A stretch of DNA of 64,000 bases from Candidatus Omnitrophota bacterium (GCA_963828495.1 CAWHFJ010000009.1:106338-170337), one strand, 5' to 3'. Numbered from the stretch's first letter, positions 4,958 to 44,642 are shown. Numbers and translations are program-made. Notes: a model not told the origin generated them from the sequence alone.

Positions 4958-4959
4958 AA

Positions 4960-28492: not shown

Positions 28493-29854
28493 CTAGGAAT
28501 ATCCTTTCGAGTATCCAATATCAATAATCCCTCTCCTAACCAAATCTTCTATCGAATCTTTCATGAACTGCATCCCTTGGTCTTTCCCCCTTAATATGTA
28601 ATCAGGAATTTGTTTCCAGTCGCCGTCACGGATCATTTTCCTTCCGGTATCATTCATCAAGAACACTTCTACAGCCGGCACCAAGCCTGCCTCTCCGACA
28701 ATGCGAGGGAAAAGTTCTTGAACAATAATGCCATTTAACACCAGGGAAAGCCGGGTCAAAATATGTTTCTGGGTCTCCGCAGGGAAAAAGGATACCACCC
28801 GATCCAAAACCTGAGAAATGCTGGCCGAATGAATGGTGGTTAAAACTAACATCCCTGACTCGGCCGCAGTCAACACCAGCTCCAGAGTTTCTACGTCTAG
28901 AGTTTCGCCTATAATCAACACATCAGGATTTTGTCTTAACGCATTACGGATAGCTGATGCGTACGAAATGGTGTCGCGGCCCAATTCTCTTTGTTTAATA
29001 ATGCATCCTCTTTGTTCTTGAATATATTCGATGGGGTCTTCAATGCTGATGATGACACCGTTAATAAGTTTACCTAAATAACTTACGAGTGAAGCCAGTG
29101 TCGTTGTTTTCCCTGATCCCGTCCGACCGGCAATAACAATGAGCCCTCTATGGCTATCTCTCATCAAGCGTTCTGTAACGCCGGGAAGCCCTAATTGGGA
29201 AGGGGTGGGAATTTTTGCATTCACAATGCGACAAATAGCCTCTACCCTACCCTGCTGGACATGTATATTAAACCTTAATCTTTTCTCTTTATAAGTAAGG
29301 ATAAAATTTATATCTTTAGACTTCATAAACTTGGCATAACTATCGTCATCCAAGAGATTCAGCAATAAATTTTTCACCGTGTATTCATCTAAAACTCTCC
29401 CTACATTTTTCAATTCTCCCATCGTCTTTACAATAATGGGGTGCCCCGCCATAAAATGGACATCCATAACATTTTGGAGATCGACGCTATCCAGAAGAGC
29501 ATAAATATTAATCTCGTGTAAAAAAGTTATTAATTTCTCTTTGTCCTGTTCTTTGATATCCTTTATCTGGGTACCCACAAGGTACTGCCTGGAGCCTGTT
29601 TTATCAATTTGGAGCCTAACAACGGATGCCGTAAAAGATATCTTCTCATTATCTGAAACATAGCAACTGATCCTGAGGGTGGAATTCAATTTAAATTCCT
29701 TATTGTCATAAAAGCCAAGTCCTCTGGCTGAGATATCAAAAGCTTCTGTGGCCACAGGAGTACCATAACGCTCATCCCCCAGATATTCCTCATACTGAAT
29801 GGTATTTTTATACTTAAGGCGTTGGTCTTTCCTTTGATTAGATTTTGTCTGCAT
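28493..29854 (-). CDS. PilZ domain fused to a PilT/PilU-type hexameric ATPase
   Basis: N-terminal PilZ motifs RKDQR and DISARG. PilT N-domain. Walker A GRTGSGKTTT, Asp box SIEDPIEY, Walker B DVLIIGE, His box LTTIHS. Confidence 0.85.
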   Translation of the reverse strand: MQTKSNQRKDQRLKYKNTIQYEEYLGDERYGTPVATEAFDISARGLGFYDNKEFKLNSTLRISCYVSDNEKISFTASVVRLQIDKTGSRQYLVGTQIKDIKEQDKEKLITFLHEINIYALLDSVDLQNVMDVHFMAGHPIIVKTMGELKNVGRVLDEYTVKNLLLNLLDDDSYAKFMKSKDINFILTYKEKRLRFNIHVQQGRVEAICRIVNAKIPTPSQLGLPGVTERLMRDSHRGLIVIAGRTGSGKTTTLASLVSYLGKLINGVIISIEDPIEYIQEQRGCIIKQRELGRDTISYASAIRNALRQNPDVLIIGETLDVETLELVLTAAESGMLVLTTIHSASISQVLDRVVSFFPAETQKHILTRLSLVLNGIIVQELFPRIVGEAGLVPAVEVFLMNDTGRKMIRDGDWKQIPDYILRGKDQGMQFMKDSIEDLVRRGIIDIGYSKGYS

Positions 29855-29955: not shown

Positions 29956-30963
29956 TTACGAGGAAGGATGCGCGCAGGACTCGCGCACAATCAAATCAGG
30001 AGCAAAGACTTTGTGGACTACACCTTTTTGCTTACCGGTCATAATTTCATAAATCACTTTTGTCGCCTCTTCCCCCATGGTAAACAACGGCTGTTTGATC
30101 GTCGTCAATCCAACAGGGCCAAACAAGCCGGCGGGATTATCATCAAACCCGATAATCGAAATATCTTCAGGGACTTTAATACCGTTTTCCATGGCGACCG
30201 AAATAATCTCCAAAGCCATGTCATCGCTAGCCGCAAAAATAGCCGTGGGAGGATTATCCAAAGAAAAAAAACGTTCGGATGCCAAACGGGCCGACCGACG
30301 GGAATAGTCCCCCTTATACACATAATCCGGCGGAGAGTCGATCCCATGCACAGCCAAGGCATTCTGGAAACCCTCAAACCTGTCTATGCCCGCCTGTGTC
30401 TGCATATTACCGGTGATGGTGGCGATACGCTTGTGGCCTAAATTGACCAGATATTCCGCCGCCGTAAAACCGCCTTTGACATTGTCCACGGCAATGTAGC
30501 TCACTTCTAAATCTTTGACAATATGGTTAAGGACCAGGCAAGGGGTCGCTTCACGTATGGCTGATTCAACCTGAGTCCGGTTTTCAATGATATCTGCGAA
30601 GATAAGACCTCCGGCATAACTCGAGCGTAACGGATTAGTCCCGTCAGTAATATGAAAAATTAAATCTAACCGCAGGGTTTCGCAACCATGGCCGATGCCG
30701 CGTATCAACTCCACGGCATAAAAAGAATGAAAAATACCGGGATACCCGGGCATAACAAAGCCGATGGCCGTGTTCTCTATCCCACGGGCCAAACGTTGGG
30801 CCGTAGGGTTGGGCTTGAACTTTAACTCGGTGATGACCTGTTGCACACGTTGGGCGACTTCTTTATTGACCGTGGGGACTTTATTGAGGACGCGGGAAAC
30901 GGTGGTGATGGAAACTTTTGCCCGTCTGGCGACATCAGTTATGCTTATTTTTTTTTCGACCAC
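29956..30963 (-). CDS. LacI-family transcriptional regulator
   Basis: N-terminal HTH ITDVARRAKVSITTVSRVLN followed by a periplasmic-binding-protein-like sugar-binding core. Confidence 0.9.
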   Translation of the reverse strand: MVEKKISITDVARRAKVSITTVSRVLNKVPTVNKEVAQRVQQVITELKFKPNPTAQRLARGIENTAIGFVMPGYPGIFHSFYAVELIRGIGHGCETLRLDLIFHITDGTNPLRSSYAGGLIFADIIENRTQVESAIREATPCLVLNHIVKDLEVSYIAVDNVKGGFTAAEYLVNLGHKRIATITGNMQTQAGIDRFEGFQNALAVHGIDSPPDYVYKGDYSRRSARLASERFFSLDNPPTAIFAASDDMALEIISVAMENGIKVPEDISIIGFDDNPAGLFGPVGLTTIKQPLFTMGEEATKVIYEIMTGKQKGVVHKVFAPDLIVRESCAHPSS

Positions 30964-31001: not shown

Positions 31002-32294
31002 TTAAAGTCTGACAGTGTCCCCCACTCTAAGCTCAGTGGATTTATCCTTGATGTCCGCAGCACAAATATCACGACGCACCTGAATGACTTCCAACGTAGC
31101 GATTGCTCTTGAATCGCGATACACTCTCAAAACACTACCAACGCCCACAGGAGAGTTGGCTTGGCCTAAATCCGCGATAACGAAATTACTGCTTTCATTA
31201 ATACTGATAATAGCCCCCTGGTTCTTAGATGCCACGGGAGACGTAAAAGCTCCCTGCCCCTGGTTGTTGGGCGCATTGACAATAATGGGAGGCAACTCCA
31301 TACCGCCCGCGGCAGAAGATGGGGCAACAGAATTTTCAGAAAGTCTTTTATCCAGGCTTTGTTTAATTTTCCAAATGTCATCAATGCGGCTTTGGATCAC
31401 GCTTTCGGTCTCAACTAATTTTTTCTGCATAGCATCTTTCTCATCCGTCAAGCGGGAAATCGTCTTCTCCAAAGCGAGCTTAGTGGAGGTCAGGCCCCTG
31501 ATCTCTGCCAGCAATTCTATGTTCTCTTCTTTGACCTTATCGGCGCGGTCATTCACGGCTTTTTGATCATTGCGTGCGCGGGCTAAATCAATGGAAAGCG
31601 TGTCGGCCAAATCTCCGCCATATTTAACTTTTTGGGCAATTTCATCTTTTTCATGAGTGACCTGTTTGACCTGCAGCTCCAGATCGGAATTCTGTTTCTT
31701 TAATTCCACGACTTGTAAAGCGGCTTGGTCCAATTCGGATTTGCTTTTCTCAATCTCCAGTTGTAAAGCGGCCTTCTGCTTAAGCACGGAAGCCCAGTAC
31801 TGATCCCCTTGGGCTGAAGTCACATCCACGACGGGCGCTGGTGCGGGGGTACTCGACGGCGGGGCCTGGATAATACGGTCTTTATAAACGATCTGGGTCG
31901 GGCGGTCTTTTAACTTTTGCATCAAATCGTCACGTTCGCGGGTAATGGTATCAACGCGATTTTTATAATCATCCCGCTCAGAATTCGCCTGATCAATCTG
32001 TGATTGCAAATCAGCGGACTTGCGCTTCACTTCATCATAAAGATTTTGGGTCTCTGTCTTTGCCTGATCGGCCTGTGAAACTTTAGTATTCAGTTGGTCT
32101 GCATCACCCTGCAATTTTTTGACTTGGGCCAAAAGCCCTGCTTCTCTGCTTTGATTGTCGGAGATTTGCGAGCGCAAATGTTGAACTTGCCCTTCAAGCG
32201 CCTGTTTTTGCATTAATGTCGAAACAGCAACTGCCGCACTAGCCACCACAAGTATTGCTAAAACCCCCACTCCCAAACGTACGGCTTTGGACAT
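31002..32294 (-). CDS. membrane-anchored long coiled-coil protein with a small C-terminal beta domain
   Basis: N-terminal TM segment (LGVGVLAILVVASAAVAV), about 270 aa of heptad-rich sequence, and a C-terminal ~70-aa domain. No family recognised. Confidence 0.6.
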   Translation of the reverse strand: MSKAVRLGVGVLAILVVASAAVAVSTLMQKQALEGQVQHLRSQISDNQSREAGLLAQVKKLQGDADQLNTKVSQADQAKTETQNLYDEVKRKSADLQSQIDQANSERDDYKNRVDTITRERDDLMQKLKDRPTQIVYKDRIIQAPPSSTPAPAPVVDVTSAQGDQYWASVLKQKAALQLEIEKSKSELDQAALQVVELKKQNSDLELQVKQVTHEKDEIAQKVKYGGDLADTLSIDLARARNDQKAVNDRADKVKEENIELLAEIRGLTSTKLALEKTISRLTDEKDAMQKKLVETESVIQSRIDDIWKIKQSLDKRLSENSVAPSSAAGGMELPPIIVNAPNNQGQGAFTSPVASKNQGAIISINESSNFVIADLGQANSPVGVGSVLRVYRDSRAIATLEVIQVRRDICAADIKDKSTELRVGDTVRL

Positions 32295-32394: not shown

Positions 32395-32961
32395 TTATTC
32401 ATAACGGATATGGGCAAGATAAAATACACACGAAGAAGGATTGTCATCCGTATTGGCAATCCAGGCAAATCCTCCGCTGATATAAGTCAAATCTTTGTCA
32501 CGTAAATCAATGGCATATTCTTTCCACTCTTTGGAGAGAATCACCGGACCGATGGAGGCCGTATCCGAATCGGGATATTCCCGGCCATTGCCTACCCCGC
32601 CTAACCTGAATTCCGCGATCCTCTCGCCGCCGGCCTCCCCGCGGGCCCAAAACACCAAACGACGGGCACCCGTTAAATTATATCCGCCTTTTCGATCCCC
32701 CCAATTATCCGCCGGATTAAGCCAGTAGACTCCGGCCCACCGTCGACTTTTTAAAGAACAGCCGGTATCATAAACGACTTTAATACAACTTGTATTCTCA
32801 TGGCAATTATCTCTCCACGCATCATCCATTTTAATGCACTCGCCGGTGGGCATATAGCCGGAGGGTACAAAACGATTTAAAGAACCCTTGTCTTGATAAA
32901 CGACAAACGGCTTAAAGGGTTTAGTTTTCTCCTCACCGGGGATGGTCGCTGTTTTGAGCAT
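32395..32961 (-). CDS. beta-sandwich (carbohydrate-binding-module-like) protein, probably secreted; 5' end appears frame-disrupted
   Basis: WAGVYW..NWG..L.F.ARGE.GGE..EF..GG pattern. A signal-peptide-like ATG ORF at 33007 lies in another frame across a T8 run. Confidence 0.6.
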   Translation of the reverse strand: MLKTATIPGEEKTKPFKPFVVYQDKGSLNRFVPSGYMPTGECIKMDDAWRDNCHENTSCIKVVYDTGCSLKSRRWAGVYWLNPADNWGDRKGGYNLTGARRLVFWARGEAGGERIAEFRLGGVGNGREYPDSDTASIGPVILSKEWKEYAIDLRDKDLTYISGGFAWIANTDDNPSSCVFYLAHIRYE

Positions 32962-33027
32962 GGGCCAGGCAGGGAATAAAAAAAAGACAAATAAGTAAAT
33001 AATTCATAAGAAGGATTCGGCATGAAT

Positions 33028-33071
33028 GAGGACAGCGCCTTATTTTTGGTAAAAATAGTGGCGCTGTCCTC
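33028..33071 (-). terminator. long perfect hairpin just downstream of the 33079 gene
   Basis: GAGGACAGCGCC (33028..33039) and GGCGCTGTCCTC (33060..33071) form a 12-bp perfect stem with a 20-nt loop. There is no clear U-tract. Confidence 0.35.
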
Positions 33072-33078
33072 TAATTAA

Positions 33079-33831
33079 TTAAACATTATCCAATTCCGCT
33101 AATTTCTGCTGAGCGGCTTCGGCAGGTTTCCAGAACCAACCGTTAGGATCCCAACATTGCGCGTACAAGAACTCGTTGATGACTCTCTTATACGCCTTAA
33201 CGGCATCTTCTTTTTTGCCGGCATTTTGATAAGCTTCACCCAAAATAAACAGGGCCGTACCGACATCATTAAGTGCCCAATAACTAAAAGTTTTCTCTTT
33301 CGATTCCCACGCATATTCTTTCAAACTCGACTGCATGGTCTTGGCTTTGCCCTCGTATAATTCCAAGGTCTTATTGACATACGCTTCCACGGCCTTAAGA
33401 TCATTGGCCGCCAGAGCCGCCCATGCCTTCTGCACTAATTGATTGGAAGAATAATCGCCGAAATTCCAATTCACCCCGGCCGCAATCATATCCAATTTTT
33501 CTTTGGCTGCTGCCGCAGGCTTCCAAAACCAGCCTTTGGTGTCCCAAGTCTGACCGAAAGAATAATCGCTAATGACTTTATTATAAGCCTCTTTCGCTTC
33601 ATCTTTCATATTGGCATTTTGATAAGCTTCCCCTTGAATGTAATAGCTGGTTGCCACATCATTAAGGGCCCAATATTTGAAGATATCATCATTAGAACCG
33701 GTCACATAATCTTTCAAGCTGGCCTGCATCTTTTTGGCCTGCGCGGCATACAGTGAAATACATTTATTAGTGTACGCCAACACAGACTCAATATCATTTT
33801 GAGCCAATGCTTGCCACGCCTTGGTGGCCAA
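33079..33831 (-). CDS. secreted protein made of two ~125-aa helical (TPR-like) modules; signal-peptide exon in another frame (33857..34030)
   Basis: Internal duplication: KAWQALAQND...WFWKPAAAAKEKLD and KAWAALAAND...WFWKPAEAAQQKLA. An upstream ATG at 34030 encodes MKKWESLLIIAVFGFCATNVFAQD. Confidence 0.65.
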   Translation of the reverse strand: MATKAWQALAQNDIESVLAYTNKCISLYAAQAKKMQASLKDYVTGSNDDIFKYWALNDVATSYYIQGEAYQNANMKDEAKEAYNKVISDYSFGQTWDTKGWFWKPAAAAKEKLDMIAAGVNWNFGDYSSNQLVQKAWAALAANDLKAVEAYVNKTLELYEGKAKTMQSSLKEYAWESKEKTFSYWALNDVGTALFILGEAYQNAGKKEDAVKAYKRVINEFLYAQCWDPNGWFWKPAEAAQQKLAELDNV

Positions 33832-34095
33832 GGTCGTAGACCGGTAATCGCCGAAATTAATCGGCGCTTTGACCCTGGCCTGCTCTGCGCCTGCCGCTCT
33901 GAGCCACCGGTGCCGGTTGAGCCTCAGAAGCCGCTTTAGCAGCGCTCACCGCCGCCTGGTCTTGAGCGAAAACATTTGTCGCACAAAAACCGAATACTGC
34001 AATAATTAAAAGACTTTCCCATTTCTTCATACCGTACTCCCTCCTTAATGTTAGGTTCTAGAAATAAAATGCCCCTGCTCCATGCAGGTGGCGTG

Positions 34096-36411
34096 CTAAG
34101 ACTTCCAAAGTTCCTTATAAGTATAATATACTTTCCTACCTTCGCGCAAGTACGGGCTTTGAGAGCCGTCTCCCTGGCCAAAAATGCCAAACCACTCTTC
34201 AAAATAATAACCGCCCGGGAAAGGCCCCACCGCGTCCGCTTTAGTGGAATGAATGGAAGGTGTATAATTTTTCCACCATTCATCCAGCCACTCAAAAGCC
34301 ATACCACCGACGGAATTTCCCACACCGTCTTCGAAACCTGCGCTGTTATAAAGGATATCCAGCCAATTGCCTTTATGATAATCCGCCTGCGCCTGCTGGG
34401 CCTGTTCATAACTCATGCTTGCCCCCCCATAAGACGGAGCCCCGTATTCCGTAATAAAAGCCGGCTTATCCGCATACTCGGCCACATCCTCCCAGAAAGA
34501 ACCGAATCCGTAATCCCCGCGATAAATATTGGCCCCGTAAGCATCCACATCCGGAGCATATTTGCCGAATTTTTCCAAAAATAAAGTATCCCCCTGACAG
34601 ATCGCCACCGGATGGTTGGGGTCGATAGATTTAATCATCTGCGCCACTTTATTGATAAATTTAAAATAGGCCACAGGTTTTTTATCGGCGTTGGACGCCA
34701 CTCCGTAATTATTTTCATTGCCTAAAATCCACATAAGAATATACGGTTGGTCCTTGAACTCCATGACCATTTCCCTGACATACGCCATCATATTTTCTTG
34801 ATGCACGGGGTTTTCATAATCCGTGCCGTCCGACCAACTGGCCCCGGAGCCGATCGCGTATTTGCCTATGAAATTACTCAACGCCACCTTAAACCCGTAC
34901 TCCTTATACATTTTTTCCAAGAGGGCCTTGTCGGATTTCATGTAGGCCTGATAGTAGATGCGTAACGTGTTGACCCCCATATCTTTCATCAGCTTAAAAT
35001 CACCGACCACAGGCTCATCGTCATGACGTCTATTGTCCCCATATTTATCCACCCATGCTTCATAGGGCGCATCAATGGTGCCGTTATGATTATCGTCTTC
35101 CTGCATCCAATCCACCAAGGTCCCATTGTCAGGGCTTTGTCCTACTTTGGTGGGCATATACGCCATGCCTTTGATCAGAAAAGGTTTATTGTCCACCAAT
35201 AACTGCCAGTGGCCGCTTTCATATTTGACAAAACGCACCTGGCCCTGCCCTGAATAAAAAAGGGGTTTCCCTAAAGGCATTTTAGGCGGCTGCCAATTTA
35301 ATTTTTGTTTGGCACGCTCAAGCGCGCTTAACTTGCGGATAACCCCGGGCTTAGTGATCGTCACATACTTATGAGGATCATCGGCATTAAGGATGCGTAT
35401 CTTGCCCCATTTGTATTCCAAATGCAGTTTAGGATGAATGCGGGTCAAATATTGAATTTTGGCCACCGCCGCCTGGGCCGGATACCACGGGGTCTGCCAA
35501 TACGTCCACGCTACTGTAGACGGAAAATTCACAATCAGCGCATGGTAGGCCTTAATGGCATCCTGATACATGCCGGCCTTTTCAAAAATGTTGCCTATAT
35601 AAAATAATCGAACGCCCCAAGATTCGGGCGCGGTAAACCATTTATAAAAAGCAGCTTGTAAGTCCGGTGTGTTGACAAAATCCCAATGACTGCCCTGCAG
35701 GCGCCCTTCTTTTAAAGCTTGCCTATACCCGGGGTCTCTATACACATCCGCTATATTAGGGTAAATACCTTCACCCGACGCTGCCACTAACCCCGCCTGA
35801 TCAGTGATTTGATAATGGAAATCCTTGGTCCCTACATTAAGGAATTTACCGTATCGCTGATAATCAACGATCTGTTCTGTTCCCGGGAACGTCAACACCG
35901 GTATGGTTCGAGGGGCTTGCTTGACGGGGGCCGCGACTTGGGAGGGTGTTTTGCCTTCCATCGTATCAATGCTGGCCTGCGATTTTTCCGCCACTGACCA
36001 GTAAGTGCCGCGGCTGGGATCAAAACTCTGGGCCCAGGGATATTGAGCGATAATATTTTTGAACTGAAGTATCGCTTCATCATTTTTCCCCTGATGCATG
36101 AGGGCCTCAGCCTTGATAAACAAACAGGTAGCCACATCCGACATAATTTTGTAATCATCTCTTTGACTGGCAACAGGGAAATGACTTAACTGGGAGGCTA
36201 ACGCTTGGGCCTTGTCGCCGTAGGTTTTAGTTATTTCATCAACTAAATCCGCAAGGGTTTTTAAATCCCCTTCATTGGAAGCTTTCCAGGACAAACGCAC
36301 AAGTTCAGAAGAGGAGCGCTCTTGCGTCTGGGCATAGACAACAACTGCCGTAGAAATAAGAAGCGTCACCACGAGGGCTGAAAAAAGGCCTTTAACGATA
36401 TATTTTTGCAT
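34096..36411 (-). CDS. secreted clan GH-A (TIM-barrel) glycoside hydrolase with N-terminal TPR-like modules
   Basis: Signal peptide from ATG 36411 (MQKYIVKGLFSALVVTLLISTAVVVYA). Acid/base motif WILGNENNYG and nucleophile motif FITEYGAP. The N-terminal modules are homologous to the 33079 protein. Confidence 0.75.
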   Translation of the reverse strand: MQKYIVKGLFSALVVTLLISTAVVVYAQTQERSSSELVRLSWKASNEGDLKTLADLVDEITKTYGDKAQALASQLSHFPVASQRDDYKIMSDVATCLFIKAEALMHQGKNDEAILQFKNIIAQYPWAQSFDPSRGTYWSVAEKSQASIDTMEGKTPSQVAAPVKQAPRTIPVLTFPGTEQIVDYQRYGKFLNVGTKDFHYQITDQAGLVAASGEGIYPNIADVYRDPGYRQALKEGRLQGSHWDFVNTPDLQAAFYKWFTAPESWGVRLFYIGNIFEKAGMYQDAIKAYHALIVNFPSTVAWTYWQTPWYPAQAAVAKIQYLTRIHPKLHLEYKWGKIRILNADDPHKYVTITKPGVIRKLSALERAKQKLNWQPPKMPLGKPLFYSGQGQVRFVKYESGHWQLLVDNKPFLIKGMAYMPTKVGQSPDNGTLVDWMQEDDNHNGTIDAPYEAWVDKYGDNRRHDDEPVVGDFKLMKDMGVNTLRIYYQAYMKSDKALLEKMYKEYGFKVALSNFIGKYAIGSGASWSDGTDYENPVHQENMMAYVREMVMEFKDQPYILMWILGNENNYGVASNADKKPVAYFKFINKVAQMIKSIDPNHPVAICQGDTLFLEKFGKYAPDVDAYGANIYRGDYGFGSFWEDVAEYADKPAFITEYGAPSYGGASMSYEQAQQAQADYHKGNWLDILYNSAGFEDGVGNSVGGMAFEWLDEWWKNYTPSIHSTKADAVGPFPGGYYFEEWFGIFGQGDGSQSPYLREGRKVYYTYKELWKS

Positions 36412-36449
36412 GACCAAGTATAGCATAATAATGCGTATCCCTGCCAATG

Positions 36450-39155
36450 TCAAACCCCCAGAACAACTTTGATGACGGCATTTTTGGTGATGGATGTTCT
36501 TTTGATGCAAACCTTAGCCGGGGCCAGACGGATCAAATCGAGGGGGTGGCCATCCATGAAAACTGCCCCAATCGCATAGGCCCCCGCATCCAATTTTTTA
36601 GGATTGTGATACTCCACCGTCAGACGCTTGCCCGCAAATGGACAGACAACACAGGCAATCCCTTGTTTATTAAATTCTTCTTTAACTAATTGAGGGGCCA
36701 AGATCAAATCACCGCGAGCGCCCCGCACGCCAAAAACATAAATCAATTGGGTCAATACCCACCAGCTGGCGGAACCGGTCAAATAATGGTACATCCCTCG
36801 GCCCTGTGAATCAAAATATTCCGGAATCCCGGGATAAATTTTACTGTGCACCCCATCGATGGCCATCCGATAAATGGACTGCAGCACTTCATAGCCACGA
36901 CGGGCAAAGCCGCGCTGGTAGAGTGCTGCGGCGAACATCACGGTCATATGGCTGAAAAAAGAACCGTTTTCTTTTGTGCCGTAAGCAAAGGCGAACGCAC
37001 GCCCCAAATCCAAATAATGACGCACACCAAAATCCGTATTCAGACGATACCCTTTAAATGTCTTGTCTTTTAAAAAGGCCTCCGCGCTTTCCACGATTTT
37101 TTCGATCTCCCCCTCAAGGGCCATCCCGCTCATGATGGCAAACACTTGCCCCGTCAAGGTCATACGCACCCGTGTGTCCACCCGACCCTCCACGGCACGG
37201 CCATTATTGTCATAATAACCGTTGAACCATTCATAGGTCTTGGAGCCTTTTTTCACCCGGACCTTTTCCTGACGGCGTATATGCGCAAATATCCATGTGG
37301 ATTTGGCGCGCAAATCACGCACCACATCTTTGATAGCCACCTCAACGGTTTGCCCGCTTAAAGCCGGTTGTACGCTGCGGTAATATCGATCGAAAAGATG
37401 CCGGTATTTCGCCTTCTGGTCGTCGTAATTAACCTTTTCACCTAAGGTGTCCAATAAAATCAAAAGCTCTCGGGCCAGGAGGACAGAATCGATGGCTTTG
37501 ATTTTGGCCATATCTTCCAGAAGGTCCGCTAGTTTTAACAAATTGCCGCCGTAAAATGACGTGAACGCCACCGACTCGCCACGGGCTGCCGCCATGTCCA
37601 GACCGTCATTCCAATCCGCGCTTTCTAAACGGATGATATTGTGTTGCCCGACGTTAAAAAATTGGGTCAGATTCTCTACCAGCACATGCTCCAGGATAGT
37701 GCCTGTATACACATGCCCTTGCCCATCCAGCAGTTTATGACCATACTGGCTCGTCCAGCCCATATCTTTGTCCAGGGTGCGGGATAATTGGCAATCCCGA
37801 AAATAATCCTGTTTCTCCAGCAGAATATCAAAGTCCCCGGTCTGGTCGATATACAGCAACAAGGTCAACAACGGCCATGCCCCGTGGTCCATCCACACGC
37901 GGGTGATGGCATTGCGGTCCGCTAAAAACTCACCGGGCGAGTTACCGATGATAGTGGCATTACTGCCGTCGATGCGGATGCCCGCACAATTGTTAATCAA
38001 ATCGGCTCTCACACCATGGGGCTCAATAAGAATCAGCGACAATAAATCCTGCCAGATATCTCTCCAACCCCTGCCGCCTTGGCCATAGTCATGGTCGGGC
38101 AAGAACGAACAGCCGAAAATACGGCGTAAAATCGGCTGTAAAATAACCCAGCGCGTCCAGGCATCAAAATTTTTATCCGCGCCGCTAAAAACAATGGCAG
38201 AAATTTTCCCGGACCAATAGGCCTTATTAAGCGCCCAGGCTTTAGCCCATTTATCCGCATCATCAAAACGGCTAAAAATATCCAGGGCTTGGGATTCGCT
38301 ATCGGCGATTCCAATAGCCACCACATAAGATTGGCTTTCCCCCGCCTTTAAAGTAAGGTCCTTGAAACGCAACGCTCCCAGAACTTCCTTGCCGTTTTTG
38401 AGCGTTTCGCCCAGCCTAACCGGTTGATGATTTTCAAAAACCGCCTGCGGCCTTTGAGGAGAGCCGCCATCGCCATAAAAACTATCCACCGTCGGAAAAG
38501 AACCCAGGATGCGGCCCCCGTTGTCCTCACCTCCAAAGACAAAATAAACACAACGGCTTTCCTGATGGCCTTCTTCATTAAAGGCCATGGCTGTCTGCAT
38601 CAACACCCCTTCGGGCCTTTGTTGGACCCGGTTTAAAAGCGCGGTCACATGTTCATGGTCGTGTTTGTTGTCCCTGGAACGGCCGAAAAGAGCAACGGCA
38701 AAGGTGGGGGTACATCGGACGGTCTTTGGGGAAATATTTTTAACCGTCACCTGCATCAATTCAACATTTTCTCCGGAGACCGGAATAAAGTTGACGGCGC
38801 TTAATTCTAATCCTGACGGCTTTAAAGAACGCTTGTACTTATGCCACAATGGGCCTATGTCAATGGTCATCGAATCCGACGGGTTTTCCTGTGATAAACT
38901 GAAAACCCCCTTCTCTTTAATAAAAACAAAGAAATCCCGCAACGGCAGGCGTAAATCTTCCCGAGAGGCAGGTTTGGTCAGGTAATGGAATTTATCCACT
39001 TTAATGTCGCCGCTGAGAGTCGGCGAAATAGCGGACTTGATACTCGATGGGCCACCACCGCACAAAGGCGCATAGATAGTCTTGATACGAGCAGCCTGTT
39101 TTGAGGTAAAACTCACTCCGTCAGGTAAAAATGTATAAAAGGGATCTTCCGGCAT
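36450..39155 (-). CDS. cytoplasmic GH94-like (alpha/alpha)6 glycoside phosphorylase/hydrolase superfamily protein
   Basis: 901 aa with no signal peptide. The ESADWNDGLD motif resembles the catalytic DWND region of cellobiose/chitobiose phosphorylases (from memory). Confidence 0.6.
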   Translation of the reverse strand: MPEDPFYTFLPDGVSFTSKQAARIKTIYAPLCGGGPSSIKSAISPTLSGDIKVDKFHYLTKPASREDLRLPLRDFFVFIKEKGVFSLSQENPSDSMTIDIGPLWHKYKRSLKPSGLELSAVNFIPVSGENVELMQVTVKNISPKTVRCTPTFAVALFGRSRDNKHDHEHVTALLNRVQQRPEGVLMQTAMAFNEEGHQESRCVYFVFGGEDNGGRILGSFPTVDSFYGDGGSPQRPQAVFENHQPVRLGETLKNGKEVLGALRFKDLTLKAGESQSYVVAIGIADSESQALDIFSRFDDADKWAKAWALNKAYWSGKISAIVFSGADKNFDAWTRWVILQPILRRIFGCSFLPDHDYGQGGRGWRDIWQDLLSLILIEPHGVRADLINNCAGIRIDGSNATIIGNSPGEFLADRNAITRVWMDHGAWPLLTLLLYIDQTGDFDILLEKQDYFRDCQLSRTLDKDMGWTSQYGHKLLDGQGHVYTGTILEHVLVENLTQFFNVGQHNIIRLESADWNDGLDMAAARGESVAFTSFYGGNLLKLADLLEDMAKIKAIDSVLLARELLILLDTLGEKVNYDDQKAKYRHLFDRYYRSVQPALSGQTVEVAIKDVVRDLRAKSTWIFAHIRRQEKVRVKKGSKTYEWFNGYYDNNGRAVEGRVDTRVRMTLTGQVFAIMSGMALEGEIEKIVESAEAFLKDKTFKGYRLNTDFGVRHYLDLGRAFAFAYGTKENGSFFSHMTVMFAAALYQRGFARRGYEVLQSIYRMAIDGVHSKIYPGIPEYFDSQGRGMYHYLTGSASWWVLTQLIYVFGVRGARGDLILAPQLVKEEFNKQGIACVVCPFAGKRLTVEYHNPKKLDAGAYAIGAVFMDGHPLDLIRLAPAKVCIKRTSITKNAVIKVVLGV

Positions 39156-39167
39156 AATACTTCAGTT

Positions 39168-39521
39168 TTAAGTTGGAAGGCTTTCTTGGGTGAGTTTAAA
39201 AAGACGTTGCATTTTAAGAAAATTCACTTGAGGGAATTCCAGTCCGATATCCCAAAAAGATAAATCCAGGGATTTTGCCCTCACCACGCGACCATTGAGA
39301 ATCATCGGCTCTCCGCCATCCGGCAATTCAACCTGCAAAGAAAGCTGATCATCTAAAAAAAACCGTTCTTTGCTCAAAATACGCGCACCGCTGGCCGAAG
39401 CATCTCTTAAAAAAACATCGTTCCCGTAATCCTCGCGTGAATCTTTAAATTTTGCCGGGAAACGGGCTGAAAACCGCTCAAATATCCTGCGATCTTCCTT
39501 TATTGGGGTGTCATCCGACAT
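39168..39521 (-). CDS. single-domain PilZ protein
   Basis: PilZ motifs RRIFER and DASASG. Start set at ATG 39521, which has an AAGGA RBS 8 nt upstream. Confidence 0.8.
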   Translation of the reverse strand: MSDDTPIKEDRRIFERFSARFPAKFKDSREDYGNDVFLRDASASGARILSKERFFLDDQLSLQVELPDGGEPMILNGRVVRAKSLDLSFWDIGLEFPQVNFLKMQRLFKLTQESLPT

Positions 39522-39538
39522 AGCCGTAATCCTTAACT

Positions 39539-39880
39539 TTATTCTTCCCAACGTTTTGAAGAAAAGTACCTATCCAAACGGTTAGGAGAACCCGAAATAA
39601 TCTCTGAAAAAACCATGCCTACCCGGTATTGGTCAGAATCGTCCAGTTTGCGTACCCACTTCACAACCCCAATGACCATAACAGGTTCTGTGTTTGGACG
39701 AAGAATGATTTCAAGCGCTATTCTCTGATTGATCCCAATGTTTTGGGAAGAAAGAAACCCAATCCCATGCCGACTGATATCTACTGTTTGAGTCTGATCA
39801 AATTCGGAACCGCTTTTACTTTCTACGGGAACAAAACAATGATGCCTTGCTTCCGCACGTTGGTTGACCTCAGCTTCCAT
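39539..39880 (-). CDS. single-domain PilZ protein
   Basis: PilZ motifs RAEAR and DISRHG. Length 113 aa. Confidence 0.8.
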   Translation of the reverse strand: MEAEVNQRAEARHHCFVPVESKSGSEFDQTQTVDISRHGIGFLSSQNIGINQRIALEIILRPNTEPVMVIGVVKWVRKLDDSDQYRVGMVFSEIISGSPNRLDRYFSSKRWEE

Positions 39881-39917
39881 ACAAGCTCCCTGCTTTTAGA
39901 TATAAAAATTATATTAT

Positions 39918-39931
39918 TGAAAGCGCTTCCC
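39918..39931. promoter_or_regulatory. candidate LacI-family operator upstream of the PilZ/glycan genes
   Basis: TGAAAGCGCTTCCC compared with the generic LacI/CcpA-type pattern TGnAAnCGnTTnCA. The core AAGCGCTT is a perfect palindrome. It is adjacent to a minus-strand TATAAT at 39908..39913. Confidence 0.3.
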
Positions 39932-40345: not shown

Positions 40346-40734
40346 ATGACTATTACTGATTATATCATCCTGGTCTTAAGCCTTTTCTTACTGGCGCGTG
40401 GCGCCGCGCGCGGATTTATACGTTCTTTGCTCGCTCCTATTTCTCTTATAATAACAACTATCCTCAGTATTCTTTATTATCAAGCCACTCACGACTTGAT
40501 CGTAAGCCTCTTATCGGATTATTGGGCCCTATCCTTCTGCATTATCTTTTAAAATTCTTCTTAAAACATTCGCCAAGAGCCACCAATACGAACACACGCC
40601 CCGGGCTTCTTCAGCAGTTTCGCGGGCGGCGTCCTTACGTTGGCCTGGGGCTGGGTATTTATTGCATTACCCTTATATTATTAGCCCTGTTTCCGGCCAA
40701 AGAAAATTTTTGGACGCCTTACACAATGATGTAA
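40346..40734 (+). pseudogene. cvpA: CvpA-family membrane protein, fragmented across reading frames
   Basis: N-terminus MTITDYIILVLSLFLLARGAARGFIRSLL is CvpA-like. The sequence continues in other frames (GPILLHYLLKFF.., then FSSFAGGVLTLAWGWVFIAL back in the original frame). Confidence 0.6.
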
Positions 40735-40768
40735 TTACTTCAATTTCTTACAAAATCACCGCCATGCC

Positions 40769-41074
40769 ATGGGAGGAAAACTTTTACCTATATTCAAAGA
40801 ACCGTCTACCCTGATAAAACTCGTCTGTCTTCAAACAGCTGACACGCAGTCCTTGGCGCAAGACCCGCGTTTCCAAAAAATCCTGCAGGATGCTGAAATC
40901 CAACAAGAAATCAACGGCCATGATATGGCCAAATTGATGAGCAATCCCAAAATAATGGCCTTGACCCAACAGATCATGACCGACCCTGAAATGCTCAAAA
41001 AAGTTATGGCCGTCTGGCAAAACCAGCCAGAAATCCCCCTCACCGTAACAAGCGCCGCTGGATCTCGCTCTTGA
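40769..41074 (+). CDS. hypothetical protein with STI1/DP-like helical repeats; possibly the C-terminal part of the disrupted cvpA-like gene (same frame as 40346)
   Basis: DPRFQKILQDAEIQQ..NPKIMALTQQIMTDPEMLKKVM pattern. It converges on and overlaps the 3' end of the response regulator gene. Confidence 0.4.
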   Translation: MGGKLLPIFKEPSTLIKLVCLQTADTQSLAQDPRFQKILQDAEIQQEINGHDMAKLMSNPKIMALTQQIMTDPEMLKKVMAVWQNQPEIPLTVTSAAGSRS

Positions 41075-41429
41075 TATCCTCCGGAGAACAAGGCTTCGCC
41101 AGAATCCCATTCATGCCTGAGTCCCAACATTCCAGCATCATGCTCGAGACTTGTCCGCGCATATACGCCGTTATAGCAACGATCGGTGTTTCTTTGTCCA
41201 TCTTGCGGATCATCTGGGAGGTTTTATAACCGTCCAGCTTAGGCATACGGATATCCATGAGGATGAGATCAAATTTTTCTGCCTGTATTTTCTCGAGAGC
41301 CTGTTGCCCATCCGCACAAAGCACAAGCCTGCATCCCATTTCTCCGATGACGATCTCCATAAAATATCGGCTAGCTTCATCATCTTCCACATACAAAATT
41401 CTTTTGTCTGCTAACGATGTGTCCACCAT
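41040..41429 (-). CDS. single-domain response regulator (REC only)
   Basis: Acidic pocket VEDDE, phospho-acceptor LILMDIRMP, and conserved T (AITAY) and K (AKP). Confidence 0.88.
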   Translation of the reverse strand: MVDTSLADKRILYVEDDEASRYFMEIVIGEMGCRLVLCADGQQALEKIQAEKFDLILMDIRMPKLDGYKTSQMIRKMDKETPIVAITAYMRGQVSSMMLECWDSGMNGILAKPCSPEDIKSEIQRRLLR

Positions 41430-41443
41430 ATTTTCCCCCTACT

Positions 41444-41827
41444 TTAAGATTTTTCTATCCACGATATAATTTCTTTTTCAAATACTTTCACATCCCTTCC
41501 CTTGGCGATAAAACCGTTCATCCCAACCAAAAAACATTTTTCCTTAACATCCGCCAAGACATGGGCTGTCACCGCGACAATCAAAACGGTCCTGTCAATA
41601 TCCTGCCTGATAATCTGTGTCGCTGTTACCCCATCCATGACCGGCATCCTCAGATCCATAAAAATAATATTGAATTTGCCCCTCTTGACTTTTTCCACGG
41701 CCTCCTGACCATTATACGCCAACTCAAAACTACAACCAATGTTTTCCAACATCAGCTGCATGTAATATTGATTAGCTCTATCATCTTCTACCAATAAAAC
41801 TCTCTTGTCTTTGAGCGTTTGATCCAT
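41444..41827 (-). CDS. single-domain response regulator (REC only)
   Basis: VEDDR, IIFMDLRMP, AVTAH and AKG motifs. Confidence 0.88.
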   Translation of the reverse strand: MDQTLKDKRVLLVEDDRANQYYMQLMLENIGCSFELAYNGQEAVEKVKRGKFNIIFMDLRMPVMDGVTATQIIRQDIDRTVLIVAVTAHVLADVKEKCFLVGMNGFIAKGRDVKVFEKEIISWIEKS

Positions 41828-41837
41828 TCTGACGCCC

Positions 41838-44642
41838 CTAAATTTTATCCAAATTAAAAGTCACTATAAATTCACTGCCTTTGTCGATTTGGGATAGTAC
41901 ACGGATCTGCCCACCCATTAAAACAGCCAATTTCTGCGCAATGTGCAACCCCAGACCCACTCCATCGTATATTTGCCCTTTATAAAACTCATGAAATCTG
42001 GTGAAGGGATCAAAAATATAAGGCAGCTGTGCCTCAGGTATGCCAATACCGGTATCTTTCACTGAAACTCTCACACGATATTGATCTTTGTTAGGCTGAT
42101 GGTCATCAATTCCAGCGGTCACTTGGATCCGGCCCTTTAGTGTGTATTTGAAAGCATTGCTTAACAAATTATCGATGATCTGCCGCACCCTAAGAACATC
42201 CCCTTTTAACCGTGGGATTGTTCCTTCAAAACTTAAGGATACCGTCACATCTTTTTTCCCTAACCCGACCTGTGCTGTCTCCACGGCCTCTGCCAACAGC
42301 TGATGAAGATCCAATTCTTCGGACTTAAATTCTGCCTTACCTAAATCTATTTTAGAAGCATTAAGAATATCTTCAACCAGGGCCAAAAGATATTTTCCCC
42401 GTTCATTGATAAAATCGACCCCTTTGCGGTACTTTTCCTCCATATCCACAGACTTTAATATATGGGAAATCCCGAGAATCGCATTTAAGGGGGTGCGCAA
42501 ATCATGCGAAATATTCGTTAAAAATTCCGTCTTATATCTATTGGCCGTCTCCGCCTCTTCTTTAGCTATTCTCAGCGCTTCTTCGATTCTTTTGCGCCCG
42601 CTTAACTCTTGTTGAGATTTTTCGTAAAGCTGCGCATTGACCAGGGCCACTGAAACTTGACTCGCCAGGGTTTCAAGAAATTCGCTTTGCTGATCGAAAT
42701 CCCGCATAGTGTCCGACGCCAATCCCATCACGCCGATGATTTCGTCCCCGTTGGTCAACGGCAATGCCACAAAGGATTTTATACCGGCCCGTTTGCATTC
42801 CTGCCAAGTACAACGGCCGTCCGTAAAAATATCGCGGGAATACAGGGGTTTCTTTTCTCGAACCGCCGATCCGCACAGGCATTCGCCTACGCGATGTTCC
42901 GGAATAACACCGAAACGCCGGCCTAAATCAACTGGCAGCGATTCCTTGAGGACCAGTCGCTCTCCGTCGCGGAGAAACAAAAAAGTCAGATCGGCATCAA
43001 CAGCACCGCGTATCCCGGCCAACGCGGTTTTTATGGTCTTATCCAACGACAAGCTTGTGTTCACCGTACGCCCCAAAATATTAAGCGCAGAGAGCTCCTC
43101 TCCCCTCTGAATGATCATTCTTTCAGCGCGCTTACTCTCAGTAATATCGATAATGATCCCTATGATCGCTTGCTCTCCTTTCAAATTAATCAATTCTGCC
43201 ACAATGAATACATCCCGAATCTCCCCGGACTTCCTGCGAAATTGTGTTTCCAGTCTCTCTACGCGTCCCTTTTCTGAAAGCATCTTGACCATCATGACGC
43301 GATGTCCCGGGTAAACCCACATATTTAATGTTACAAGATCGTTTCCGACTATCTCCTGGCGCGTATGTCCGACAAAAATGTCAAAAAAAGCATCATTAAC
43401 CTCCAGAATCTTCCCGTCTGCAAAACGCGTTATAGCAATACTAATCGGCGCATGATGAAATACACTCGCAAACCGCATCTCACTCTCTTTCAATGTCTCT
43501 TCCGCCTTCTTGCGTTCGGTGATTTCGCGCACCATAGCAATCACACCGATAATGTTTCCACTGTTATCCCGATGCGGCGTATAAATCCCCTGGGCCCAAC
43601 CTTTTTTTTCTGTCCCGGGGACACGATATTCAAAATCGGAAGAAATAACCGTCTGGCCGAGCATCGCCCGGGCCAATAACTTATCAATGCCTTGCTCCAC
43701 AATGTGCGGGAATAGATTGGTGGCTTTTTTCCCAAGAACTTGTGCTGCCGGCATCCCTGTCATCTGCTCCATCGCTGAGTTCCAAACTTTATAACATAAT
43801 TGAGTGTCGTAAACAATAATACCCTCGCCGGCGGCCCGGATGACTTCGTCAGCGAAATGTTGGGCCTCCCTGATGCCCTCCTCCATCCGCCTGTGCTCGG
43901 TGATGTCATGCATAACAGCAACCGCTCCCAAAACCCGTCCGTCTTTGCCCTTAACCGGCCCTGCGTTGGCCATAATATAACGTTTGGGCTGCCCCTTAGC
44001 GGCAATCACCATACTGATGTTCTGCATCGTTTCACCGCGGAAAGCCCTCGCCAAAGGAACGGTGCTAATATCCATGGGTGTCGTCCCGTCCTCTTGATAA
44101 AGATCATAATAGCTGGCCCATTGTGTCTGCGGGATTTTCCTGGGATCCAATCCATGCCAATCGCGAGCCTTCCGGTTAAAAAGAACAAGCTCTCCATCTT
44201 CATTGCATGCCACGAGTCCGGCGTCTATATGCTCGAATATAGTTTCCAAAAAAGTCCACTGAAAATCGAAAGCTATCTGTGCCTGCTTGTGCTTAGTGAT
44301 GTCCTTAAGGCCCATCAGGACCATCCGCTCACCCACTACATCTTCATCAATAATTCTGGCATTAAGCAACAGTGTCCTCTCGCCAATACCCGGGAATTGA
44401 CCACAGAGCTCAAAATTGTCAATTGAGGTCTTTTGAGTCCATACGGCTTCTAACATCTTGCGCAGCGCCGGAATATCCCACTGATGCTGCCCTAAATCGT
44501 AAAGCAGTTCACCTTCGGTTTGCTCCGGAAGAATTTTAAATTGGCAATAAAAAGACTTGTTGGCTGTCTTGACGCAGAGACTTTTATCAAGAACTATCAT
44601 CGGGTCAGGAACCGCTTCAATGATACTTTTGATCGAATGCAT
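41838..44642 (-). CDS. cytoplasmic multi-PAS, GAF hybrid-type sensor histidine kinase
   Basis: About four PAS/PAC units and a GAF domain. H-box ISHDLRTPLNAI and ATPase boxes (LSNAFKYT, DTGIGI, GVGLGL). Confidence 0.9.
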   Translation of the reverse strand: MHSIKSIIEAVPDPMIVLDKSLCVKTANKSFYCQFKILPEQTEGELLYDLGQHQWDIPALRKMLEAVWTQKTSIDNFELCGQFPGIGERTLLLNARIIDEDVVGERMVLMGLKDITKHKQAQIAFDFQWTFLETIFEHIDAGLVACNEDGELVLFNRKARDWHGLDPRKIPQTQWASYYDLYQEDGTTPMDISTVPLARAFRGETMQNISMVIAAKGQPKRYIMANAGPVKGKDGRVLGAVAVMHDITEHRRMEEGIREAQHFADEVIRAAGEGIIVYDTQLCYKVWNSAMEQMTGMPAAQVLGKKATNLFPHIVEQGIDKLLARAMLGQTVISSDFEYRVPGTEKKGWAQGIYTPHRDNSGNIIGVIAMVREITERKKAEETLKESEMRFASVFHHAPISIAITRFADGKILEVNDAFFDIFVGHTRQEIVGNDLVTLNMWVYPGHRVMMVKMLSEKGRVERLETQFRRKSGEIRDVFIVAELINLKGEQAIIGIIIDITESKRAERMIIQRGEELSALNILGRTVNTSLSLDKTIKTALAGIRGAVDADLTFLFLRDGERLVLKESLPVDLGRRFGVIPEHRVGECLCGSAVREKKPLYSRDIFTDGRCTWQECKRAGIKSFVALPLTNGDEIIGVMGLASDTMRDFDQQSEFLETLASQVSVALVNAQLYEKSQQELSGRKRIEEALRIAKEEAETANRYKTEFLTNISHDLRTPLNAILGISHILKSVDMEEKYRKGVDFINERGKYLLALVEDILNASKIDLGKAEFKSEELDLHQLLAEAVETAQVGLGKKDVTVSLSFEGTIPRLKGDVLRVRQIIDNLLSNAFKYTLKGRIQVTAGIDDHQPNKDQYRVRVSVKDTGIGIPEAQLPYIFDPFTRFHEFYKGQIYDGVGLGLHIAQKLAVLMGGQIRVLSQIDKGSEFIVTFNLDKI

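Follow-up and report, generated by a model that had tools for sequence, protein, structure and literature searches.

A tandem pair of PilZ genes heads a probable beta-1,3-glucan utilisation operon in Candidatus Omnitrophota

In a 64 kb stretch of DNA from a Candidatus Omnitrophota bacterium (hereafter the window), two small genes encoding stand-alone PilZ proteins, PilZ1 and PilZ2, lie directly upstream of a gene for a 901-aa phosphorylase of glycoside hydrolase family 94 (GH94), which is followed by genes for a 771-aa secreted glycoside hydrolase and several accessory proteins. All genes of the operon are on the minus strand. We think it reasonably probable that this locus is a LacI-controlled operon for the use of exogenous beta-1,3-glucan (of laminarin, curdlan or callose type), in which the first two genes encode receptors of cyclic diguanylate (c-di-GMP). 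The catabolic module is of a known kind, as it is found in the laminaribiose operons of Firmicutes and the GH158 loci of Bacteroides. What is new are the PilZ pair at the operon head, a distant GH158-like enzyme fused to TPR-like modules, and a family of proteins resembling carbohydrate-binding modules (CBM-like). An earlier note on this DNA had regarded a glycan operon headed by PilZ genes as undescribed and, in agreement with this, no paper in the literature searched connects PilZ with GH94 or with the phosphorylases of laminaribiose or cellobiose. Searches on PilZ with MalK or MsiK likewise gave no description of this arrangement, and those on c-di-GMP in Omnitrophota gave no more than a census-type mention. 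All genes listed in that note were reproduced on the minus strand, at the coordinates it states, by open reading frame (ORF) listing and translation, and its domain calls by Pfam (Table 1). Relatives were analysed as fetched loci labelled L001 and so on.

Both PilZ proteins score well above the Pfam cut-off of 22.5 bits (PilZ1, 44.3 bits; PilZ2, 42.9 bits) and carry the two c-di-GMP-binding motifs, R8xxxR12 and D34xS36xxG39 in PilZ1, and R12xxxR16 and D40xS42xxG45 in PilZ2. In each family (35 sequences, 34 from relatives and one from the window) the RxxxR and DxSxxG positions show conservation of 90% or more, and with these motifs intact both proteins are predicted to bind c-di-GMP. The ratio of nonsynonymous to synonymous substitution (dN/dS) was 0.13-0.18 for PilZ1 and 0.13-0.20 for the pair overall, or about 0.15. 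The two families are distant paralogues (hhalign probability 97%, 21% identity). A profile of PilZ1 gave no matches in PDB, and that of the PilZ2 family matched the Xanthomonas-type PilZ structures 3DSG and 3CNR weakly (1e-4 over ~55 residues).

Homologues of the 901-aa phosphorylase, which we identify below as a putative laminaribiose phosphorylase (LBP), were found overwhelmingly in metagenome-assembled genomes of Omnitrophota. Iterative searches of all fetched loci placed both PilZ genes directly upstream of the LBP gene in the window, in three metagenome contigs and in the representative genomes of 31 GTDB species, so that the PilZ-carrying set consists of 34 related loci and the window itself; the recurrence of the PilZ-PilZ-GH94 triplet in 31 species-representative genomes is far beyond chance. 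A neighbour-joining tree of the phosphorylases placed the LBPs bearing a PilZ pair in one Omnitrophota clade. Conservation of the PilZ and GH94 neighbourhood had been named in the earlier note as a test that could refute its proposal; it did not do so, as the neighbourhood is kept across the whole of this clade, with the c-di-GMP motifs intact. Nine loci within the clade carry an orphan LBP gene without PilZ in unrelated contexts, and the eight of these that were placed on the tree are nested inside the PilZ-bearing clade, thus implying secondary loss of the pair. The existence of such orphan LBP genes also indicates that the role of the PilZ proteins is regulatory and not structural. Among the fetched loci, no adjacent PilZ pair was seen beside phosphorylases less than 50% identical, either in other Omnitrophota or in Firmicutes.

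Gene order in the close relatives L001-L003 is the same as in the window. The PilZ-PilZ-LBP core has been kept in these four loci, in which a transporter found in other relatives is deleted, and also in L009, where everything downstream of it has been replaced by housekeeping genes. Since the core outlives both the transporter and the downstream locus, the partner of the PilZ proteins is more likely to be LBP than the importer or the glucanase. The pair has furthermore survived ~50% divergence of the LBP protein and several rearrangements, and in the closer clade the PilZ genes are co-oriented with the LBP gene and separated by gaps of 6-40 nt. Variants of the arrangement were also observed: in L040 (3438-7193) a gene for a 1251-aa secreted protein without Pfam match and ORFs of 85 and 81 aa lie between the PilZ pair and LBP, and in L027 (3208-8133) the LBP region forms part of a possible fusion, an ORF of 1641 aa. 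In other Omnitrophota clades, genes for unrelated PilZ proteins of 135-140 aa are located near LBP genes (L047, 3588-3995; L068, 4157-4579) whose products are less than 50% identical to the LBP of the window, which points either to a recurring association or simply to the abundance of PilZ genes in the phylum.

The GH94-like call previously made for the 901-aa protein could be sharpened to laminaribiose phosphorylase. Two GH94 domains of Pfam, the supersandwich domain PF06165 (1.6e-7) and the catalytic domain PF17167 (3e-24), were found above their curated cut-offs, and the protein matched PDB entry 6GGY, the crystallised LBP of Paenibacillus sp. YM-1 (PsLBP), over residues 16-874 (phmmer E = 7e-261) at 48% identity (851 residues aligned). 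Cellobiose and chitobiose phosphorylases, the GH94 enzymes that came next, reached only 1e-18 to 1e-10. Residues R365-D366, W515-N516-D517 and H736 align with PsLBP and correspond to the RD sugar-phosphate motif, the WND loop bearing the general-acid Asp, and the phosphate-site His of GH94 enzymes (roles as given in PMC6771811). The DWND motif pointed out earlier is at residues 514-517, and no N-terminal hydrophobic segment was visible by reading, in line with the stated lack of a signal peptide. The protein is best described as a predicted LBP whose specificity is taken from an enzyme 48% identical to it. We also considered solabiose phosphorylase specificity and rejected it, as that enzyme has 768 aa and shares 11.5-29.2% identity with characterised GH94 enzymes, compared to 48% with PsLBP here.

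The PilZ genes appear to be part of the same transcription unit as LBP. The first four genes (PilZ1, PilZ2 and those for the 901-aa and 771-aa proteins) are separated by 17, 12 and 38 nt, as calculated from their coordinates, and PilZ1 is taken as the first gene of the unit because a 260-nt AT-rich spacer and then divergent genes for small membrane proteins lie upstream of it. Close to the start of PilZ1 we identified an operator-like palindrome that agrees with the consensus TGAAAGCGCTTTCA of LacI/CcpA type in 12 of 14 positions and is the sole match in the window with at most one mismatch to the 12-nt core. In the 34 related loci (613 kb), 18 of the 23 near-perfect operator matches were at most 400 nt upstream of PilZ1, a zone making up ~2% of the sequence. 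This position puts the PilZ genes inside a unit controlled by a sugar repressor. The presumed ligand of the candidate operator is the LacI-family protein encoded at the end of the locus, which is conserved at 56-99% identity with a dN/dS of 0.03. Co-transcription, as proposed in the earlier note, is thus plausible given the tight spacing and the LacI-type operator upstream of PilZ1, and the gene of the CBM-like protein is most likely the last of a unit that starts with PilZ1, since an AT-rich spacer precedes the following gene for a coiled-coil protein. Rfam at gathering thresholds found nothing in the whole window, and no c-di-GMP riboswitch precedes the operon.

More distant relatives encode, between LBP and the glucanase, a sugar-binding lipoprotein (SBP), two permeases of the ATP-binding cassette (ABC) type and often a symporter of the glycoside-pentoside-hexuronide (GPH) group of the major facilitator superfamily (MFS). 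In the window, tblastn with residues 251-274 of the second permease (Perm2) of L005 gave a match of 67% identity at 36456-36385, where the last 24 codons of such a permease are joined to the beginning of the glucanase gene, so that the glucanase signal peptide is partly built from the remnant. Because this remnant remains where relatives carry the cassette, the MFS-SBP-Perm1-Perm2 cassette appears to have been deleted in the lineage of the window. No other SBP or permease copy was found in the 64 kb. A near-consensus sigma-70-like promoter (TTGACA-17-TATTAT, 11 of 12 positions) is located at 36425-36453, at the LBP stop and inside the permease remnant, a short way ahead of the glucanase start, and may have provided the glucanase with its own promoter after the deletion. 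LBP homologues of Paenibacillus and Clostridium are encoded in operons with the order LacI-SBP-permease-permease-LBP.

The 771-aa protein begins with a signal peptide and two TPR-like modules, each closed by an aromatic beta-hairpin; a beta-rich linker then leads to a (beta/alpha)8 barrel of clan GH-A. This agrees with the TPR-like modules and GH-A barrel described before, and the GNENN and TEYG motifs are at residues 564-568 and 654-657, respectively. For the barrel, Pfam recognised only a generic GH2-type TIM barrel, with a weak GH72 match in some homologues. The best PDB sequence matches were GH158 enzymes, both with the single sequence (9ORO, 8e-15; 6PAL, 2e-10) and with a profile of 39 homologues (9ORO, 7e-16; 6PAL, 4e-13; compared to 4e-10 for the best GH2 entry), the sequence matches to GH158 spanning just 133-182 residues. 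E566 of GNENN and E655 of TEYG, which are invariant in the 39 homologues, align with chain residues E135 and E221, that is, with the acid/base Glu143 and the nucleophile Glu229 of the enzyme GH158(Pro). In an AlphaFold2 model (pLDDT 78), the TPR-like modules and a beta-rich segment (331-417) are N-terminal of the barrel, and the six best Foldseek matches were all GH158. Sequence and fold thus refine the GH-A assignment to a GH158-like beta-1,3-glucanase, which we consider a distant relative and not a proven member of GH158. GH158(Pro) is a processive beta-1,3-glucanase that mainly releases laminaribiose (PMC13195107), and such a product would fit the substrate of the phosphorylase exactly.

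Two accessory proteins follow the glucanase. The two-module TPR-like protein is a paralogue of the glucanase N-terminus (30-42% identity in relatives), and its intact orthologues have 316-322 aa. The CBM-like protein was modelled with a pLDDT of 85.7 and a pTM of 0.82, and its top Foldseek matches were CBM8, CBM30, CBM11 and CBM29 (E = 2e-6 to 3e-5), with CBM27 and CBM22 also among the matches (TM-score 0.53-0.69 overall); model and Foldseek thus bear out the beta-sandwich fold predicted earlier. A profile of 14 orthologues gave nothing significant against PDB and Pfam, and by sequence the protein is not assignable to a described CBM family. Secretion of these two proteins, as claimed in the earlier note, holds for relatives, which encode intact secreted or lipoprotein forms (the CBM-like orthologues bear signal or lipoprotein peptides), and in the assembly of the window, where both signal peptides are off-frame, would hold only with the indels read through. 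The gene of the two-module protein is read there as a signal-peptide ORF (33946-34030, ATG at 34030) and a 250-aa body ORF (33079-33831) in different frames, and that of the CBM-like protein as a signal peptide starting at ATG 33007 and a 188-aa body ORF (32395-32961). Compared to relatives at ~90% and 76% LBP identity, one extra base is present in each gene, near 33898 and 32946; the former is a single extra base in the alignment with L002 and L003. We rejected the possibility of old pseudogenes, as dN/dS of the two genes is 0.05-0.16 and another assembly (P0241) holds an intact 203-aa version of the CBM-like protein that is otherwise identical. The tRNA-modification gene mnmG (gidA) at 24847-26704 is likewise split by one base, into ORFs of 173 and 439 aa with a one-base difference from L001 near 26211, which favours the view that the two insertions are probably assembly artefacts or very recent mutations. 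The earlier note had not recorded the paralogy, the two frameshifts or the loss of the transporter cassette.

Between the genes of the two-module and CBM-like proteins a very stable GC-rich RNA hairpin is predicted (minimum free energy -27.7 kcal/mol, z = -7.2 versus shuffles). L001 has kept its sequence, and the hairpin may serve in processing, stability or attenuation. The coiled-coil protein has an N-terminal hydrophobic segment, and its gene follows that of the CBM-like protein in relatives, at 34-87% identity. The LacI gene is followed by genes for a PilZ-T2SSE ATPase and an Nramp transporter. This PilZ-PilT ATPase had been listed as a member of the locus, but it is absent from L001, L002 and most related loci, and we therefore rejected it as a conserved component of the system. 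It was also observed beside the locus in L003 (19539-20900), and a similar gene is near the distant LBP of L064 (4446-5831). On the other side of the operon, the gene of a CvpA-family membrane protein is broken in its middle third by several indels and stops; in L001-L003 the protein is intact, with 232-233 aa and a C-terminal STI1/HOP DP-like domain. Just past CvpA (41040-44642) come genes for a 934-aa hybrid histidine kinase rich in PAS domains and for two response regulators of a single domain each. This region varies among relatives: the number of response regulators ranges from one to three, and in L003 the kinase is fused to CheB/CheR.

A further cluster (162-5802) near the start of the window combines a MalK/MsiK-type sugar ABC ATPase with a GAF-GGDEF cyclase, a second GGDEF cyclase and a histidine kinase. 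The order AccD-MalK-GAF-GGDEF-GGDEF recurs in about 14 metagenome loci (L085, L086, L089-L099 and L101) with MalK at 62% identity or more. The MalK-GGDEF-GGDEF cluster thus connects sugar import with c-di-GMP in a second, likewise conserved way, and the combination of MalK with diguanylate cyclases suggests that this link is systemic in the lineage.

Table 1. Features of the PilZ-LBP locus and of the MalK-GGDEF cluster, with positions in the 64 kb window
Feature	Position	Strand	Basis or remark
CvpA-family membrane-protein gene, divergent from PilZ1	40346-41074	+	three ORFs in the window
LacI-type operator-like palindrome, GGGAAGC/GCTTTCA (minus strand)	39917..39930	.	37 nt upstream of PilZ1 ATG
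PilZ1, 113 aa, stand-alone PilZ, first gene of unit	39539..39880	-	Pfam PF07238, 2e-11
PilZ2, 117 aa, stand-alone PilZ	39168..39521	-	Pfam PF07238, 6e-11
Predicted GH94 laminaribiose phosphorylase (LBP), 901 aa, cytoplasmic	36450..39155	-	6GGY match, motifs
ABC permease 2 remnant, last 24 codons, fused to glucanase gene start	36385..36456	-	tblastn
GH158-like glucanase, 771 aa, predicted secreted	34096..36411	-	Pfam TPR_6 and Glyco_hydro_2_C
Two-module TPR-like protein, predicted secreted	33079..34030	-	Pfam TPR_6 twice; 1-nt insertion near 33898
RNA hairpin, 12-bp GC-rich stem, no U-tract, between TPR-like and CBM-like genes	33028..33071	-	
CBM-like beta-jelly-roll protein, predicted secreted, 203 aa when intact	32395..33007	-	Foldseek; 1-nt insertion near 32946
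Membrane-anchored coiled-coil protein, 430 aa, small C-terminal beta domain	31002..32294	-	coiled-coil-type Pfam only
LacI-family repressor, presumed operon regulator	29956..30963	-	Pfam LacI HTH and Peripla_BP_3
PilZ domain (N-terminal) fused to PilT/T2SSE-type ATPase	28493-29854		minus strand; beside the locus in the window
MalK/MsiK-type sugar ABC ATPase	3854-4957	-	cluster 162-5802
GAF-GGDEF cyclase	2593-3885	-	overlapping frames after MalK
Second GGDEF cyclase	1565-2605	-	MalK cluster
Histidine kinase	162-1568	-	MalK cluster

From these data we propose that the secreted GH158-like glucanase, together with the CBM-like and TPR-like module proteins, would cut the polymer to laminaribiose or short oligomers, which an SBP-dependent ABC importer, with or without the GPH symporter, would take up (encoded in the operon in relatives, deleted in the lineage of the window). 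In the cytoplasm, LBP would convert laminaribiose to glucose and glucose-1-phosphate. The LacI repressor, sitting on the palindrome, would silence the unit in the absence of an inducer, which is presumably laminaribiose. PilZ1 and PilZ2 would be produced together with LBP, bind c-di-GMP and serve as small adaptors that tie the c-di-GMP state of the cell (attached versus free) to the flux through the pathway. On synteny grounds LBP is the most parsimonious target of the PilZ proteins, the alternative being a shared ABC ATPase of the MalK/MsiK type. More tentatively, and with doubts prevailing, PilZ1 and PilZ2, possibly as a heterodimer, might directly switch the catabolic phosphorylase or the MalK-type ATPase and thereby form, with the MalK-GGDEF-GGDEF cluster, a sugar/c-di-GMP feedback circuit.

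Several observations weigh against this proposal. The gap between PilZ2 and LBP is 120-280 nt in the more distant relatives and could house a promoter of its own, and the scans for promoters and terminators gave counts about as expected from shuffles and so did not inform on the operon boundaries. With the importer of the locus lost and two accessory genes frameshifted in this assembly, the pathway may be incomplete in this organism unless a transporter encoded elsewhere serves it. The substrate specificities are drawn from enzymes 48% (LBP) and ~20% (glucanase) identical to the proteins of the window; for the glucanase, the Foldseek matches to GH158 had TM-scores of 0.47-0.58 and identities of 16-21%, and its model stops after the barrel, where an Ig-like domain at the C-terminus was not seen. 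Finally, 30 of the 34 related loci with a PilZ pair have CvpA, divergently oriented, upstream of it; CvpA is thus syntenic with the pair as well, and synteny alone does not single out LBP. It could accordingly be argued that the adjacency to LBP is inherited without a functional tie, and that the pair goes with CvpA or is just one of many PilZ genes in Omnitrophota genomes rich in them, as the unrelated PilZ genes near LBP in other clades (L047, L068, L064), which may reflect PilZ gene density, would also allow. We consider this very improbable. The operator, specific to its place between CvpA and PilZ1, lies near the start of the latter; in the window CvpA is broken while both PilZ genes are intact; and the co-orientation and short gaps between the pair and LBP in the closer clade, as well as the persistence of the pair through LBP divergence and rearrangement, also weigh against it.

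If the PilZ proteins do belong to the operon, they might still be its outputs, their dose being set by the laminaribiose-responsive LacI operator and their action directed at targets outside the locus, such as type IV pilus ATPases, adhesion or motility, so as to keep cells on the glucan. Motility or pilus machinery is the target of most characterised stand-alone PilZ proteins (YcgR, DgrA/MotI, MapZ and Xanthomonas PilZ), the only PDB sequence matches of the PilZ2 family are PilZ proteins of the Xanthomonas type IV pilus, and the placement of the operator upstream of PilZ1 suits such a role, as does the PilZ-PilT ATPase gene just downstream of the locus in the window and L003 and the similar gene near LBP in L064. 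This ATPase is however missing from L001, L002 and most related loci, the match to pilus PilZ structures is weak, and outputs of this kind would not require a tight and lasting adjacency to LBP that is retained even after the rest of the locus has been lost. We regard this explanation as unlikely. Less credit can be given to the idea of the earlier note that the locus links c-di-GMP levels to how the cell turns over or recycles the extracellular beta-glucan matrix that it makes, comparable to BcsZ with BcsA. It is true that c-di-GMP classically controls exopolysaccharide and that synthesis of curdlan, a beta-1,3-glucan, is c-di-GMP dependent in Agrobacterium; the secreted TPR-like and membrane-anchored coiled-coil proteins could be matrix-associated, and PslG was among the distant Foldseek matches of the barrel (rank 30). 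However, no glycosyltransferase or synthase domain (such as GT2, glycosyltransferase family 2) was found in the locus of the window, in the Pfam gene lists of L001-L003 or, by reading, in the L005 cassette, and the conserved partners (importers, phosphorylase and LacI) are hallmarks of catabolism, paralleled by the LacI-ABC-phosphorylase module of Paenibacillus and Clostridium, which is a nutrient-uptake operon. The locus is hence better read as one for catabolic uptake than for exopolysaccharide turnover, and we find the latter improbable.

c-di-GMP is mostly known for its roles in polymer synthesis, adhesion and motility, and a PilZ pair within a degradative LacI operon would extend its reach to nutrient catabolism, in an uncultured and poorly understood phylum. 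That such a pair is kept at a glucan operon in about 30 related species suggests a direct wiring of sugar breakdown to a signal of lifestyle. Should the PilZ proteins indeed switch the phosphorylase or the ATPase, this would be the first control of glycan catabolism by PilZ adaptors and offer an entry point to how Omnitrophota nanobacteria that live on hosts or particles link feeding with attachment; should they act elsewhere, the locus would be an ordinary beta-glucan utilisation operon with two passengers. Beyond this, the locus adds a second lineage of laminaribiose phosphorylases among bacteria, a distant branch beside GH158 that is fused to TPR-like modules, a new CBM-like family without sequence relatives among described modules, and a candidate operator.

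Compared to known systems, the catabolic part most resembles the laminaribiose operons of Firmicutes (Paenibacillus sp. YM-1 LBP and homologues), with which it shares a GH94 LBP, an SBP-dependent ABC importer (in relatives of the window) and a LacI regulator. In the fetched loci, the Firmicute clusters have no PilZ genes, no TPR-fused GH158-like glucanase and no CBM-like or coiled-coil genes, and LBP is their last gene, whereas it is the first after the PilZ genes in the Omnitrophota locus. Bacteroides GH158 loci combine SusC/SusD with periplasmic hydrolysis by GH3 enzymes and a hybrid two-component system. The BuGH158 loci and GH158(Pro) are similar to the present system in having a secreted or surface GH-A beta-1,3-glucanase with the same pair of Glu residues and dedicated glycan-binding proteins, but those enzymes carry an eight-stranded Ig-like domain at the C-terminus in place of an N-terminal TPR-like region and share ~16-21% identity with the enzyme of the window, and the Omnitrophota system, lacking SusC/SusD, relies on ABC/MFS import, phosphorolysis and a LacI regulator.

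Stand-alone PilZ adaptors are known to bind protein partners, as in MapZ/PA4608 with CheR1, DgrA/MotI with the flagellar motor, and Xanthomonas PilZ with FimX and PilB. PilZ1 and PilZ2 resemble them as single domains of ~110-120 aa, and share RxxxR and DxSxxG with those that bind c-di-GMP. The partners of the known adaptors belong to motility, chemotaxis or pilus systems, whereas the neighbour here is a catabolic phosphorylase behind a sugar-repressor operator, and the Omnitrophota locus differs further in having two paralogous PilZ genes in tandem that are always kept together. BcsA and Alg44 share with the present proteins the PilZ fold, the c-di-GMP motifs and a glucan-related context; in those systems PilZ is fused to or partnered with a synthase and activates synthesis, while here it is free-standing, beside a degradative pathway with no synthase. 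PlzA of Borrelia burgdorferi is a dual xPilZ-PilZ c-di-GMP receptor that influences the use of glycerol and chitobiose. PlzA is reported to bind DNA and RNA in a c-di-GMP-dependent manner (PMC9915621). Like the pair described here it has two PilZ-type modules and is connected to carbohydrate use, but it is a single polypeptide encoded outside glycan operons and acts on nucleic acids. In Streptomyces, c-di-GMP binds the glycogen-debranching enzyme GlgX, a precedent for the tuning of a glucan-catabolic enzyme by c-di-GMP, albeit with no PilZ adaptor and on an alpha-glucan store rather than an exogenous beta-glucan. In conclusion, with PlzA and GlgX as precedents the finding does not break a paradigm; it places two predicted c-di-GMP receptors at the head of a probable sugar-catabolic operon of an otherwise known kind.

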